Assembly (NCBI GenBank): GCA_003327455.1
Contig: QOQU01000008.1
Coordinates: forward strand, 889-64,888
Direction of reading: 5' to 3'
From: Anaerolineae bacterium
Lineage (GTDB): Bacteria; Chloroflexota; Anaerolineae; Anaerolineales; UBA4823
DNA length: 64,000 nucleotides
How positions within the stretch are numbered: the first letter of the stretch is position 1; each line of letters opens with the position of its first letter. The translations under genes and the position numbers were made by a program. The notes under the pieces are model-generated. The model was given only the letters and a program-made list of their open reading frames with translations, had not been told where the DNA came from and searched no databases. Below, one piece after another: positions 34,589 through 59,247 of the stretch.

Positions 34589-35059
34589 CGCACCGCCTTT
34601 ATGAAAACGATGATAACCTGCTAAAGAGGATTCGGAATTGCTCTTCAGGCAGAAGAGATTGCCTGATGAAAAGCTAAGATCAGATCATGGGAATTCGTTA
34701 ATAACATCAACCACCTCTAAAAGAACACCGCTTTGGATTGCTTTGATTATCGTCTAAATTCAGAGTAAAGTAATCTGCAATAGATAATCAAGTGTAAAGA
34801 CGAAAATCACCCCGCATAGAGGAAGAAAATCAGAACGCGTGACGAAACATTTCCCAACCTTTCACGCCATCTTTTACCCCCAAGGGCAGCCAGGGGGTAT
34901 TTTCGAAGCTTCAGAGGAGAACAATTGAACCTTCGTTTTGGTTGGATTCGTCAGGGGATCACGCGTGCCTATTCTATTCAGTGAGGAAAGAATTCCTTCG
35001 CCCAACAATCTTGTAAATTCATTTAACTTCCAACCTAACAGTTCTGCGAGGTTATTTCG

Positions 35060-35088
35060 TTGACAGGGACTCCGTTTTCTGCTAGGAT
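35060..35088 (+). promoter_or_regulatory. Sigma70-type promoter upstream of the tandem riboswitches
   Basis: TTGACA (35060-65), 17-bp spacer, TAGGAT (35083-88). Confidence 0.7.
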
Positions 35089-35100
35089 AAGCTCAAGCAC

Positions 35101-35186
35101 GAAAAGGCAAACCCGACGAAAGTCGGTGACGCAAAGCCATGGGTCTACCGTCATCGTTTGATGACCAGGACTGCCAGGTTACCGAA
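35101..35186 (+). ncRNA. c-di-GMP-I (GEMM) riboswitch 1
   Basis: GGCAAACCC-GACGAAAGTC-GGTGACGCAAAGCC...GGTCTA...GCCAGGTTACCGAA matches the GEMM consensus, with a GAAA tetraloop and G at the position equivalent to G20. Confidence 0.92.
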
Positions 35187-35221
35187 TGTGACCAAGAATC
35201 GATATTGTGTCTTCATTCGAA

Positions 35222-35249
35222 GAGCCTGGCTACGCCCAGGCTCATTTGC
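35222..35249 (+). terminator. Expression-platform terminator-like hairpin of riboswitch 1
   Basis: GAGCCTGG/CCAGGCTC stem followed by ATTTGC, a weak U-tract. Confidence 0.55.
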
Positions 35250-35277
35250 TTGAGTGCACTTTACCAATCTGATCCCG

Positions 35278-35367
35278 ACCGATAAAGGCAAACCCGGTGA
35301 AAGCCGGGGACGCAAAGCCATGGATCTACAGCCAGCCATGCTGGCCAGGATAGCCAGGTTACCGAAG
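35278..35367 (+). ncRNA. c-di-GMP-I (GEMM) riboswitch 2 (tandem)
   Basis: GGCAAACCCGGTGAAAGCCGGGGACGCAAAGCC...GATCTA...AGCCAGGTTACCGAA. Confidence 0.92.
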
Positions 35368-35384
35368 CAGTGGAGATTCTTGCC

Positions 35385-35416
35385 AACGGGCTTGGTTATC
35401 CAAGCCCGTTTTATTT
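35385..35416 (+). terminator. Expression-platform terminator of riboswitch 2
   Basis: AACGGGCTTGG-TTAT-CCAAGCCCGTT followed by TTATTT. Confidence 0.8.
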
Positions 35417-35430
35417 GGAGAGTAAATCGA

Positions 35431-37107
35431 ATGAAGACGAACCAACCTCGAACCAGATCAAGCGCCTTTCTCAGCCTATCAAGTCGAAAGGCGCTGAGCG
35501 GGTTTGGCATTTTGGGTGTCCTTCTCCTGATTCTCTCCATCTTACCCATTCGAACCGCCCAGGCTGCATCCTCCTCCAGCTTACCTGCCTGTCAGCCATT
35601 TGTGCAAGTCAATGACAATGCCTTCGGTCTCGGCGGTGGAGCAGATGGTACCTTCAGCTCCGAAGAGGGTTTTGAAGTGCTGGTCTTCAATGGGCAACTG
35701 TACCTTGGCATGGAAGCCGATAACTCCATGGGAGCGCGAATCTGGCGCACAAAAGCTGGCGTGACTGTTCCCTCTTCCCAAGCAGATTGGGAGGAAGTGG
35801 CAGCGAATCCCCAAGGATACCCCTTCGGGGTAAGCAATATCACCCAAAACGACCATATTGACAGCCTGGCTGAATTCAATGGCTATATCTATGCCAGCAC
35901 CGCCAATGGCGGCAGCAGTACATATGGAACACGGGTGTTTCGCAGCCTCACCGGTAATCCAAATAGCTGGGAAGATGCCTTAATCAACATCGGCGCCGGC
36001 TTTGGCAGCACACAGAACACAAATTTCAAAGATATGCAGGTGTTCAATGGCTGGTTGTGCGGCGGCACTCAGAACTGGCTTTACGGGGCTCAGGTCTGGT
36101 GCACCCAGGATGGCCTAAACTGGACGCAAAAAAATATCAGTGGGTTCGGCACTACCGAATACAACAACAAAACTGTCGAGGTCTGGTCGGGATACGTTTT
36201 TCAAGGAGCCCTGTATTTTGGCGTGCAAAATCTCGGCGCAACCCGCTCCAGTAACTATGATGATCTGGGAAAGCTGTATCGAACCCGCAACCTGAACGGC
36301 ACTCCGCAGTGGGAAGAGGTCTTTGTTAGCCTGCCCGGTTACCTGAATCGGGTCGATATCCTTGGGGAATTAAACGGTTATCTCTATGTTGCCAGTCGGG
36401 GTTCCAATGGCGGGACCATCATTTACCGCAGTCCAAACGGCGATCCTGGCACCTGGCAACCTGTCAGCCTTGAAGGGGTCAATGGTAACACCGCCAACAA
36501 CGGTGTGATTGTTGACAGCGCTGTGACTTATGAAGGTGGTTTATATGTGGCAGTTGGCAACAACAGCGGCTTTCAACTGTGGCGTACCTCAGGAGCTGAC
36601 CAGGGCACTGGATTGGTAGATTGGGAACAAGTGGGTGGAAGTGGTTTGAGTGATGCAAAGAATGTCCTCTCAGAGCTTGTGACCTTTAATGGTTATCTTT
36701 ATGCCTGGACAACCAATTACAGCCGCGGTCAACAGGTGTTACGTTCTAACTGCGCTGCTGGGGCGGTGCCGCTATCCCCAACCGCAACGAATACCTCCCA
36801 ACCAAGCCCTACCCCAACGGCAACTCAAACAACTCAACCCAGCCCTACCTCTACAGCTACCGTACCTCCCACAGCTAGCCCTACCCCCACGGTAACTCAA
36901 ACATCTCCAGTTAGCCCAACTGAAACGACTATCCCCACCCAAACTCCGGTTGCTTCTACCACACCCGCTCCCAGCCTGACACCAACCGCTACGCCCACTT
37001 CAGAGACACCACCGTCAGTCTGTCCGCAAGGTGATCAAAGCTGTCAAAGCTCCAATCCAAATAGTTCTCCATATAGCGTATTTATCCCCATTTTGATCAA
37101 ACCGTAA
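35431..37107 (+). CDS. Secreted beta-propeller-like protein with Thr/Pro-rich stalk and C-terminal VFIPILIK tail
   Basis: Signal peptide ending RTAQA, about 6 repeats of the type (L/F)xxFNGxLY...G..(I/V)WR, PT-rich linker. The start is moved to 35431 because 35254 lies within the riboswitch leader. Confidence 0.75.
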   Translation: MKTNQPRTRSSAFLSLSSRKALSGFGILGVLLLILSILPIRTAQAASSSSLPACQPFVQVNDNAFGLGGGADGTFSSEEGFEVLVFNGQLYLGMEADNSMGARIWRTKAGVTVPSSQADWEEVAANPQGYPFGVSNITQNDHIDSLAEFNGYIYASTANGGSSTYGTRVFRSLTGNPNSWEDALINIGAGFGSTQNTNFKDMQVFNGWLCGGTQNWLYGAQVWCTQDGLNWTQKNISGFGTTEYNNKTVEVWSGYVFQGALYFGVQNLGATRSSNYDDLGKLYRTRNLNGTPQWEEVFVSLPGYLNRVDILGELNGYLYVASRGSNGGTIIYRSPNGDPGTWQPVSLEGVNGNTANNGVIVDSAVTYEGGLYVAVGNNSGFQLWRTSGADQGTGLVDWEQVGGSGLSDAKNVLSELVTFNGYLYAWTTNYSRGQQVLRSNCAAGAVPLSPTATNTSQPSPTPTATQTTQPSPTSTATVPPTASPTPTVTQTSPVSPTETTIPTQTPVASTTPAPSLTPTATPTSETPPSVCPQGDQSCQSSNPNSSPYSVFIPILIKP

Positions 37108-37356: not shown

Positions 37357-37389
37357 TAAATTAAATCGTCCTATCATTGTGCGGAGCAC

Positions 37390-37468
37390 ATCGAAAGGGC
37401 AAACCCGCCGTAAGACGGGGACGCAAAGCTGAGGGTCTATTTATCAGAAATAGATAGTCTAGCTGCCG
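37390..37468 (+). ncRNA. c-di-GMP-I (GEMM) riboswitch 3
   Basis: GGGCAAACCCGCCGTAAGACGGGGACGCAAAGCTGAGGGTCTA...ATAGTCTAGCTGCCG. Confidence 0.88.
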
Positions 37469-37500
37469 TGGGTGTTTCTACTAGCGGCAGTTTTTATTTT
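37463..37500 (+). terminator. Terminator overlapping the 3' end of riboswitch 3
   Basis: CTGCCG...CGGCAG stem followed by TTTTTATTTT. The 5' arm is part of the aptamer. Confidence 0.75.
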
Positions 37501-37552: not shown

Positions 37553-39016
37553 ATGAAAGAAAGGGTGGGATATCTATTATTGGCGGTGATCATCGCCCTG
37601 AGCGGAGTGATGATCCTTGGCGGAGTCGCTCTAGCGGCCTCGAATTATGAACCCGCAAGCCCAGAATGTTATAACAAAATCGTCATTAAGAAAGTCACGG
37701 AACCGGCTGGAGGGTCAGCTTTTCCTTTCACCCTCCAATGGGGCACAACAATAAAAAATTTTTCCTTGAACGATGGCGGTGAGACGACCTATTTTCCGAA
37801 TAGTTACAGCGTCTTTACCCTGACCGAGGCGGTTAAAGCAGATTATTACTTGAAGTCGATCTCTTGTAGCGGTCCACCAAATGCCATTTTTAACTACGAT
37901 TTGCCAAACCGACGGGTGATTATTGACCTAAAGACAAACAGAGTTGACGGAACGGTTACCTGTACGTTTACCAACACCCATTACGGCAAAATCACGGTCT
38001 ATAAATTTGAAGACCTGAACGATAATGGACAGTGGGATAATGAGGAACCACCCTTACAAGACTGGCAATTTGATTTATCTGGAGCTAAAACAGCAAGTGG
38101 AAAGACAGATAACAACGGAAAACTTGTCTTCGAAAACCTGATCGCAGGAACATATACCGTCACAGAAAACCTTGAAGACGAATATATTCCTACTACAGGG
38201 TACTTCCAAAAGGTCACATTGAATCCCAATGGAGATGAAACCCGTTATTTTGGCAATCGACGCCTGCAAATGGACTATGGTGATTTACCCTCTGCTTATG
38301 GTCTGACTTTGTTTTCTGAAGGCGGTGCCCGTCATCTACCCCTCGAACAAGGCGATGTCTGGCTTGGTACAAACCGGGATGAAGAGTACGATGGTAATCC
38401 ACACAACGACGCCATGGGGGATGATAACGATGCAACCAACGATGAAGACGGCGTGGTGCGCGGCGCAACCTGGGGTGGCGGCAGCGGGCAAATCTTCGTA
38501 ACCGTCAATGGTCCTTCCTGTCTGATGGGTTGGGTAGACTATGCAACTGTAACCGAAACAGTCCCTACAAACTTGTTCAAAGAGTTTGGGTTCGATCATA
38601 AATTCACTGAGAGTTTTGATAAAGGTGGAAGCATATTCTCCGAGAAAGTGATTGACAATATTCTGTTTACTTCTGCTGGTGTTCATGAGATTACATTTTC
38701 ACTACCGGTGGACTTTGGTAGCGCCAGCGTCTTTGCCCGTTTCCGACTTTCACCCGCCATCCCGGTCAATGGTGACGAGGGTTCAAGCCCTACCGCTGAA
38801 GGCAATGAAACATACCGCTGTCCATCTGTCGACCTTACCGGGCCCGTCCAGGGGGGCGAAGTCGAAGATTATGTGTGGACATTCGGACCCACCGCAATTG
38901 AGCTCAAGCAGATTAACGCTTCACAGCAACGTTCTACTGTTAGCATTGGCTGGATTTCAATTGGCGTGTTGATTGGCACTTCTGCTTTGTGGGTCATCAA
39001 ACGCCGCCGGAAATAA
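37553..39016 (+). CDS. Cell-surface protein with SpaA/SdrD-B-like Ig domains, a GEVED domain and a C-terminal membrane anchor
   Basis: Signal peptide; KITVYKFEDLNDNGQWD...TDNNGKLVFENLIAGTYTVTE; DYGDLP...GGEVEDY; PTAIEL; TM segment plus KRRRK tail. Confidence 0.8.
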   Translation: MKERVGYLLLAVIIALSGVMILGGVALAASNYEPASPECYNKIVIKKVTEPAGGSAFPFTLQWGTTIKNFSLNDGGETTYFPNSYSVFTLTEAVKADYYLKSISCSGPPNAIFNYDLPNRRVIIDLKTNRVDGTVTCTFTNTHYGKITVYKFEDLNDNGQWDNEEPPLQDWQFDLSGAKTASGKTDNNGKLVFENLIAGTYTVTENLEDEYIPTTGYFQKVTLNPNGDETRYFGNRRLQMDYGDLPSAYGLTLFSEGGARHLPLEQGDVWLGTNRDEEYDGNPHNDAMGDDNDATNDEDGVVRGATWGGGSGQIFVTVNGPSCLMGWVDYATVTETVPTNLFKEFGFDHKFTESFDKGGSIFSEKVIDNILFTSAGVHEITFSLPVDFGSASVFARFRLSPAIPVNGDEGSSPTAEGNETYRCPSVDLTGPVQGGEVEDYVWTFGPTAIELKQINASQQRSTVSIGWISIGVLIGTSALWVIKRRRK

Positions 39017-48708: not shown

Positions 48709-48727
48709 CAAAGCGACAATTCAAGAT

Positions 48728-48852
48728 ACCTTCGGGGCAGGGTGCGGTCGGAAACGACCTATTCCCGATCGGCGGTAAAGCCCGCGAGCGCAAGAAAGCG
48801 CACGATTCGGTGGAACTCCGAAGCCGACGGTATAGTCCGGATGGAAGAAGGT
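48728..48852 (+). ncRNA. FMN riboswitch (RFN element)
   Basis: CTTCGGGGCAGGGTG...ATTCCCGATCGGCGGTAAAGCCCGCGAG...GATTCGGTGGAACTCCGAAGCCGACGGTATAGTCCGGATGGAAGAAG, with P1 ACCTTC/GAAGGT. Confidence 0.96.
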
Positions 48853-48902
48853 CAAGCAGGATAAAGTTTGCGCGCGCCGTTTCTTGACGGTGTGTAGAAT
48901 GC

Positions 48903-59020: not shown

Positions 59021-59098
59021 AGGCTTTGGTTCTTTCTTCGCGTGGGGAAATACGCTCAGAATGCCCGGCCTCCCTTGCCGCGAGGGAGATGACGAGCA

Positions 59099-59227
59099 AG
59101 ATACAGGCGGGTACTCGGGCTTCGCACTTTGTGCGCTACCGTTGCGGGACAGCGCCGGACTTCCCCTTCGGGTCACCGGCTTCCCCCATTCTGCGCCATG
59201 CATCCGGGCATTGGCGCACCTGTATCT
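59099..59227 (-). ncRNA. Cobalamin (AdoCbl) riboswitch
   Basis: Minus strand AGATACAGGTGC...GGGGGAAGCCGGTG...GAAGTCCGGCGCTGTCCCGCAACGGTAG...AAGCCCGAGTACCCGCCTGTATCT, with a 9-bp P1 and a downstream CTCCCTCGCGGCAAGGGAG hairpin. Confidence 0.93.
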
Positions 59228-59247
59228 GGCTATCAGAATTTGGGATA

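Follow-up and report, generated by a model that had tools for sequence, protein, structure and literature searches.

Why should one gene be preceded by two closely similar receptors for the same second messenger, and in which direction would they switch it? This question is raised by a 64,000-nucleotide stretch of DNA from an uncultured member of the Anaerolineales (Anaerolineae bacterium; GenBank assembly GCA_003327455.1, contig QOQU01000008.1, positions 889 to 64,888 of the forward strand), here called the window, in which the 5′ leader of the gene at 35431-37107 carries two c-di-GMP-I aptamers, i.e. aptamers for c-di-GMP (cyclic diguanosine monophosphate). We consider it probable that this leader represents two complete, independent c-di-GMP-I riboswitches in series, both of them transcriptional OFF switches of the Cd1 type. 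In Cd1, an OFF switch located upstream of flgB in Clostridioides difficile, the aptamer is compatible with the terminator, and both are in competition with an antiterminator (PMC9262584).

Two aptamers in one leader

Both aptamers were identified in an Rfam cmscan as full-length matches to RF01051 (c-di-GMP-I, GEMM-I; gathering score 35) on the + strand, covering model positions 1-87 of 87. The first (35096-35186) scored 75.2 bits (E 6e-13) and the second (35277-35366) 84.6 bits (E 3e-15). They lie 90 nt apart on the common + strand and are 79% identical (73/92 columns). No further relevant RNA family was found by Rfam in 34950-35500 at E values up to 1, and no separate open reading frame was found between the two aptamers. 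A consensus scan for promoter-like sites gave none between the units, the sole site being located upstream of aptamer 1. This promoter scores 10 of 12 consensus matches plus the TG, and its TTGAC and the TA..AT of the -10 box are kept in seven orthologous leaders; therefore, the transcription start is placed at about 35095. The features of the leader are as follows (P1, P2 and P3 being helices of the aptamers, T1 and T2 the hairpins of units 1 and 2):

35060-35088, + strand: sigma-70-type promoter; -35 box TTGACA (35060-35065), 17-nt spacer containing TG (35080-35081), -10 box TAGGAT (35083-35088)
35096-35186, + strand: c-di-GMP-I aptamer 1 (RF01051); G20-equivalent G35106, A47-equivalent A35133, C92-equivalent C35182, GAAA tetraloop
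35173-35188, + strand: predicted antiterminator 1, 5′ half; P2 3′ strand GCCAGGUU (35173-35180) and P1 3′ strand CGAAUG (35183-35188)
35214-35230, + strand: predicted antiterminator 1, 3′ half; CAUUCG (35214-35219) and AGCCUGGC (35223-35230), overlapping the T1 5′ arm
35222-35252, + strand: hairpin T1 with tail (stem 35222-35243); arms GAGCCUGG/CCAGGCUC, 8 bp, -14.0 kcal/mol, tail AUUUGCUUG; GC-rich and terminator-like, with a weak U-tract
35249-35267, + strand: conserved spacer element CUU-GA-GUGCAC-N-UUACCAA; its GUGC (35254-35257) can pair with GCAC (35097-35100) of the P1 5′ strand
35277-35366, + strand: c-di-GMP-I aptamer 2 (RF01051); G20-equivalent G35287, A47-equivalent A35314, C92-equivalent C35362, GAAA tetraloop
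35349-35364, + strand: predicted antiterminator 2, 5′ half; GAUAGCCAGGU (35349-35359) and CCG (35362-35364), which includes the C92-equivalent
35385-35418, + strand: predicted intrinsic terminator T2 (stem 35385-35410); 11 bp, -19.4 kcal/mol, loop UUAU, tail UUAUUUGG
35387-35400, + strand: predicted antiterminator 2, 3′ half; CGG (35387-35389) and GCUUGGUUAUC (35390-35400), comprising the T2 5′ arm, the loop and the first base of the 3′ arm
35417-35420 and 35431-35433, + strand: Shine-Dalgarno sequence GGAG and start codon ATG, read from the sequence and kept in orthologues

Thus, the description given in an earlier note on this DNA, namely two complete aptamers in series, each followed by a hairpin, was borne out by the RF01051 scores and by the T1 and T2 stems; the end coordinate that it gave for the element (35431) is the first base of the start codon.

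The ligand-contacting positions of both aptamers were taken from the Rfam alignments, and the G20, A47 and C92 equivalents follow the Vc2 numbering. The GNRA tetraloop feature of the class is present in both aptamers as a GAAA loop on the first hairpin. A G instead of an A at the G20-equivalent position is the determinant of selectivity for c-di-GMP versus cyclic GMP-AMP (cGAMP) (PMC9481103). Both aptamers are accordingly predicted from their sequence to be selective for c-di-GMP rather than cGAMP; the earlier note had argued the same from G at this position, and G35106 and G35287 agree with it, as do the canonical A47 and C92 equivalents. The genome has 13 matches to the GGDEF domain and should therefore be able to make c-di-GMP. 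For some orthologous second aptamers and for a third aptamer of the window, the c-di-GMP-I-GGC variant (RF03167) was the top-scoring model; since all of them have A and not G at the A47-equivalent, we regard this as a scoring effect and not as a variant binding site.

Antiterminator pairings and their conservation

In neither unit do the aptamer and the downstream hairpin overlap, and the two can coexist. The antiterminator borrows strands of the aptamer and can form neither beside the folded aptamer nor beside the terminator, which is the arrangement of an OFF-type switch. Antiterminator 1 is bipartite and consists of GCCAGGUU/AGCCUGGC plus CGAAUG/CAUUCG, with CGAAUG, the P1 3′ strand of unit 1, adjoining the C92-equivalent. 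For the unit 1 transcript ending at the T1 loop, i.e. at the decision point, the minimum-energy fold is the antiterminator (-46.7 kcal/mol vs -39.0 kcal/mol with the aptamer enforced), and addition of the T1 3′ arm shifts the fold to aptamer plus T1. When the linker and the hairpin arm were shuffled, 2 of 300 shuffles reached the observed 15 pairs, the mean being 1.9. The complementarity of the aptamer 3′ strand to the T1 5′ arm, as described in the earlier note, was therefore found again, and the pairing is longer than stated there. Another pairing present in the minimum-energy fold of the window, between UUUGCUU of the T1 tail and AGGCAAA of the aptamer, was discarded, as it is not conserved (UUCUUU in L012, UUUUUU in L014).

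In unit 2, GAUAGCCAGGU/GCUUGGUUAUC plus CCG/CGG form the predicted antiterminator, with a duplex energy of -18.1 kcal/mol. The earlier note had recognized the complementarity of the aptamer 3′ strand to T2, here again extending further than stated, and had called it weaker than that to T1; with this duplex energy it is not the weaker one. For the window transcript ending at the hairpin loop, the antiterminator reaches -44.9 kcal/mol as compared to -42.2 kcal/mol with the aptamer enforced, and the complete transcript including the T2 3′ arm folds into aptamer plus hairpin. The observed 14 pairs were reached by 2 of 300 shuffles of linker and hairpin arm (mean 1.6 pairs). T2 itself, a GC-rich stem-loop followed by a U-tract, fits an intrinsic (Rho-independent) terminator. 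One fold of a window transcript ending early formed an antiterminator 2 from the P3 5′ strand; this candidate was rejected, as orthologues have another P3 sequence and do not keep the pairing.

For comparison, leaders from related genomes and metagenomes were collected. The window lies on contig 3 of its 3.9 Mb, 98%-complete genome, whose nearest named relatives are Anaerolineales metagenome-assembled genomes (MAGs; phylum Chloroflexota), several of hot-spring origin. Orthologous genes are preceded by the tandem leader in five congeneric genomes, in two additional genera and in a single MAG beyond these. The clade set used here comprises seven orthologous loci and L053 (eight further genome loci), giving nine distinct leader sequences together with the window. 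One orthologue (L017) has a single aptamer, and among the more distant homologues scanned (40-58% identity) no riboswitch was found upstream. A pattern of two aptamer cores at a distance of 145-174 nt was matched in 95 stretches of metagenome contigs, and with the genome loci added, 73 distinct complete leaders were obtained. Across the 61 related genomes, 40 have c-di-GMP-I aptamers, and about 21 of these 40 have at least one pair within 300 nt (counted from coordinates).

Of 72 distinct tandem leaders taken from genomes and metagenomes, 67 have the same antiterminator 1 as their minimum-energy fold. Pair counts and covariation were computed on an alignment of 67 related leaders, in which the outer helix of antiterminator 1 is paired at 93.7%. 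Antiterminator pair 14-63 is UA in 39 sequences and CG in 15, and terminator pair 63-112 changes together with it (AU in 49, GC in 13), so that one base covaries with two alternative partners. The covariation score was 0.193 vs 0.153 in shuffles (0/500 reached it) and at most 0.085 with the partners slid; since the related leaders are not independent, the shuffle counts overstate significance, and the slid-partner control is the fairer one. The inner helix differs by clade (CGAAUG/CAUUCG in that of the window, CGAAGA/UCUUCG in the main group), with three pairs changing on both sides; it is 69% paired, and the alignment is less secure at this helix. The T1 stem is 97% paired in the 67 relatives, five of its pairs being changed on both sides. 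The approximately 70 related leaders provide unusually clear comparative support for a bipartite antiterminator, with the P1 3′ strand as its likely nucleation site.

In unit 2, antiterminator 2 forms in eight of the nine distinct clade leaders when transcripts ending after the T2 loop are folded, and all 14 pairs are retained in 9/9 clade members (126/126 cells paired). The clade also conserves UUAU, the T2 loop, whose bases contribute to this pairing. Where the T2 stem changes, from CUU/AAG to UCU/AGA in two genera, the terminator is kept and so is the antiterminator, by a G-U/G-C exchange with the invariant aptamer strand. What supports unit 2 is conservation under a double constraint.

From the anatomy of unit 1, a toehold mechanism is suggested. 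Without ligand, the free P1 3′ strand (CGAAUG in unit 1, CCG in unit 2) would pair within the hairpin's 5′ arm or directly upstream of it. Starting at this toehold, the arm would push aside the P2 5′ strand and take its place on the P2 3′ strand (unit 1, GCCAGGUU; unit 2, GAUAGCCAGGU). Thereby the hairpin would be blocked, and the polymerase would read through. With c-di-GMP bound, P1, P2 and C92 would be locked and the toehold hidden, so the hairpin could form and transcription would stop. Expression would equal the product of the two read-through probabilities, and high c-di-GMP would therefore shut the gene more tightly and more steeply than one switch could. The analysis shows the aptamers and hairpins, the alternative pairings, conserved and covarying as described, and their energetics; that the ligand binds, that the toehold acts in this order, that T1 and T2 terminate and that the units are independent is what we infer. 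The OFF-OFF logic via an antiterminator from the aptamer 3′ strand, as proposed in the earlier note, is supported in silico by thermodynamics, shuffles, conservation, and the covariation in 67 leaders.

The weak tail of T1 and competing explanations

Several points weigh against two serial OFF switches. In the window, T1 is followed by an interrupted run with only 5 U among 8 bases (AUUUGCUU). Most orthologues have AAUUGCUU as tail, and the clade mean is 4.2 U in 8 bases vs 6.2 in the wider family. The leading U-run after T1 is 0-3 in nine of the 10 clade members and 5 in L014, as compared to typically 4-8 in the wider family. With its U-tract degraded in the clade, unit 1 may terminate weakly. 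For unit 2, the aptamer side is invariant, so that two-sided covariation is absent, and for both units the nearest-neighbour energies leave out the ligand and tertiary contacts such as that of tetraloop and receptor. Finally, in the RNAalifold consensus of the full clade leaders, unit 1 is fully strand-swapped though the T1 3′ arm is present: the strands of P2 are paired to the arms of T1 (5′ strand to 3′ arm, 3′ strand to 5′ arm), GCAC (35097-35100) of the P1 5′ strand is matched to GUGC (35254-35257), and the linker takes up the P1 3′ strand. This preference implies that T1 is unfavoured at equilibrium without ligand, and control would have to be kinetic.

The swapped fold involves the spacer element. 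In the clade, CUUGAGUGCAC (35249-35259) behind T1 is conserved, GTGCAC is invariant in 8/9 genome leaders with the tandem, and GTGCAC-N-TTACCAA (35254-35267) is invariant or nearly so; the main family group has GGAACCTTATCA at this place. Both spacer elements are partly complementary to the 5′ GAUAAAGG of aptamer 2 and to the P1 5′ strand of aptamer 1. In the RNAalifold analysis of the nine full leaders, columns 8-11 pair with 167-170 and columns 15-17 with 162-164 in 9/9 sequences. Elsewhere in the family, what follows the U-run also tends to be complementary to the P1 5′ strand (UCC/GGA, CCGAUA/UAUCGG, AUCCC/GGGAU). The family-wide signal for this closing helix is weak, with at least 4 bp in 68% of native pairs vs 41% of permuted pairs.

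These observations bear on the explanation which survives best beside the favoured one, namely that only unit 2 terminates. Hairpin 1 of the clade would have lost its U-tract and no longer stop the polymerase, and unit 1 would be a ligand-sensitive self-closing domain acting by polymerase pausing, by 5′-end protection or by preventing mispairing with unit 2. It accounts for a T1 tail that is degenerate in all 10 clade members, unlike in the wider family, for the consensus fold, where the conserved CUUGAGUGCAC is paired to the G20 region and the P1 5′ strand, and for a closing duplex of greater strength in the clade (mostly -11 to -14 kcal/mol, -8.5 kcal/mol in L014) than in the main family group (approximately -5 to -9 kcal/mol). 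We nevertheless hold this explanation to be unlikely: the T1 stem and antiterminator 1 are perfectly conserved in the clade while the T1 loop varies, as a working switch needs, the window tail with its 5 U in 8 still passes the terminator scan, and the closing helix has the weak family-wide support just described. Of the claim in the earlier note that each aptamer has its own terminator, the separate hairpin and antiterminator of each unit stand; to call the hairpin a terminator is less secure for T1, with its degenerate U-tract, than for T2.

More doubtful is the idea that unit 1 is a four-strand exchange device, which closes on itself after read-through, instead of a plain terminator switch. 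All aptamer strands have a conserved alternative partner, and the clade seems to have given up the U-tract in exchange for a closing helix of greater strength. If true, unit 1 might mainly insulate or gate the near-identical unit 2 or stabilise the 5′ end of the mRNA, and not terminate; it would then represent a tandem design principle not yet described.

That the aptamers are not independent, with unit 1 strands such as CCAGGCUC, the T1 3′ arm that almost duplicates the P2 3′ strand, contacting unit 2 in true cooperativity, seems improbable to us. The units are 79% identical with P2 strands in common, the spacer element is, by reading, partly complementary to GAUAAAGG of aptamer 2, and adjacent aptamer pairs with one shared terminator occur in relatives; yet each unit has a complete set of antiterminator and hairpin, the units stay separate domains in the consensus fold, and a conserved inter-unit helix was not found. 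ON switching by one or both units, or a response to another dinucleotide such as 3′,3′-cGAMP, is very improbable, for even though most single c-di-GMP-I switches of the genome look ON and few changes can re-tune GEMM-I aptamers, neither hairpin overlaps its own aptamer, no pairing was found that blocks the hairpins in the bound state, the covarying pairing needs P2 open, which the ligand prevents, and the G20-equivalent is G and not A, with A47 and C92 canonical.

Two serial OFF switches have close counterparts among known systems. Tandem thiamine pyrophosphate (TPP) riboswitches of Bacillus anthracis are two OFF switches for one ligand, with a terminator each and a steeper response; they differ from the window tandem in ligand and aptamer class. 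The Bacillus anthracis system appears in Table 1 of a survey by Sherlock et al. (2022), which counted 347 c-di-GMP-I doublets and 12 triplets, the most of any class (PMC9481103). The window tandem has the same-class, multiple-expression-platform ('pseudo-cooperative') architecture of these 347 doublets, for which the survey gives no polarity or mechanism and no mention of Chloroflexota. Like Cd1, the window tandem would be a class I transcriptional OFF system with an antiterminator in which the terminator's switching strand joins the aptamer 3′ strand; Cd1 has one unit, comes from another phylum and stands in front of flagella genes, while here a tandem precedes a gene for a secreted beta-propeller, and a bipartite antiterminator with a P1-strand toehold is proposed from its sequence. 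The Bc3-5 triple tandem of Bacillus thuringiensis allows more stringent, more digital control than a single unit (PMC4759541). It likewise has several complete c-di-GMP-I riboswitches in one 5′ untranslated region, with an own terminator each; it differs in having three ON units, whose terminators use the C92, P1 and P3 strands of the aptamer, instead of two units predicted to be OFF-OFF. As tandem c-di-GMP-I riboswitches with separate platforms are already well known, the present case does not change the knowledge on riboswitch architecture; its new points are the phylum, an OFF-OFF polarity backed by comparative evidence, and details specific to the clade. In the riboswitch literature compared here, no experimental riboswitch work in Chloroflexota was found.

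Regulated genes and other switches in Anaerolineales

The gene behind the tandem is described by one further feature:

35431-37107, + strand: regulated gene encoding 558 amino acids (aa), with an N-terminal hydrophobic signal-anchor helix, a beta-propeller (residues ~55-445), and a disordered Pro/Thr-rich tail

In the AlphaFold model, the predicted local distance difference test score (pLDDT) is above 90 for the propeller residues. The sequence of the propeller has no match in Pfam, NCBIfam or PDB. Best hits in Foldseek were seven-bladed Photorhabdus lectins (template modelling (TM) score 0.6-0.7 on target), followed by sialidase- and GH93-type propellers. An assignment of function by sequence or fold was given up, as there is no family match and the fold search yields generic propeller relatives; a reasonable guess is that the product is secreted and either binds carbohydrate or acts as a hydrolase. 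Homologues are frequent among Anaerolineales. Many longer ones (880-966 aa; P0083-P0121) are fused to an alkaline phosphatase (PF00245), which hints at phosphoester or glycan substrates. A paralogue with 57% identity (G000:C8:337784-339827, L170) is followed by an ON-type c-di-GMP-I aptamer (C8:339744-339827), as in the window, and no aptamer was found upstream of it.

The third c-di-GMP-I aptamer of the window is located 2 kb downstream of the tandem (37389-37471). Its terminator (37461-37492, -17.0 kcal/mol) uses the aptamer's own 3′ tail GCUGCCG as 5′ arm and is followed by U5AU4; by this layout it is predicted to be an ON switch. The gene after it (37553-39016) has SpaA and SdrD-B prealbumin-fold domains, as in adhesin-like surface proteins. 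In at least three single c-di-GMP-I switches of the genome, aptamer 3 included, the 5′ arm of the terminator lies inside the aptamer 3′ tail, which is the ON layout. The non-overlapping layout of the tandem is therefore a distinct design and not the default, and the two neighbouring genes appear to answer c-di-GMP in opposite directions. The ON layout of aptamer 3 was also seen in its G005 orthologue and at two other single aptamers of the genome. The genome's own sortase_YLP gene (G000:C13:125615-126598, L001) is located ~400 nt downstream of the best-scoring single c-di-GMP-I aptamer, and this pairing of sortase_YLP and aptamer recurs in at least six related genomes. Further regulatory RNAs of the window are a flavin mononucleotide (FMN) riboswitch (48724-48856, + strand, 95.7 bits), a cobalamin riboswitch (59089-59238, - strand, 63.4 bits), and a ribosomal protein L10 leader (1873-2024, + strand, 62.5 bits).

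Relatives also have tandems of other design. In L165-L169, c-di-GMP-I aptamer pairs ~13-17 nt apart are followed by one terminator:

G034:C18:24102-24292, close aptamer pair
G018:C19:215803-216002, close aptamer pair
G028:C1:178669-178872, close aptamer pair
G033:C195:24135-24322, close aptamer pair
G026:C33:12192-12390, close aptamer pair

Both aptamers have the 3′ tail GCUGCCUAGG, to which the 5′ arm of the shared terminator (e.g. CCUAGGGCAGCC) is complementary. Judged by this complementarity, two aptamers may serve one platform in the close pairs, and occupancy of both may be needed for termination; a review table places c-di-GMP-I only under multiple expression platforms (PMC9481103). In the largest related tandem group (L070-L149, metagenome contigs; e.g. 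L078 and L097), aptamer 1 has a strong terminator and aptamer 2 a translational platform, where UUGAGCGCC pairs with GGCGCUCAA across the Shine-Dalgarno sequence and start codon, and CCUUUAUCGA is the exact complement of the aptamer 5′ UCGAUAAAGG. The gene behind these tandems encodes a putative sortase (NCBIfam NF053836, 230 bits). This group would be a same-class tandem with two different control mechanisms.

If both units act as predicted, the window tandem is a clean, well-conserved natural case of two serial OFF switches for one second messenger, in Chloroflexota. With the propeller gene tightly repressed at high c-di-GMP, its adhesin-like neighbour of the ON type and a sortase under riboswitch control, this would point to a c-di-GMP-driven remodelling of the cell surface in Anaerolineales.

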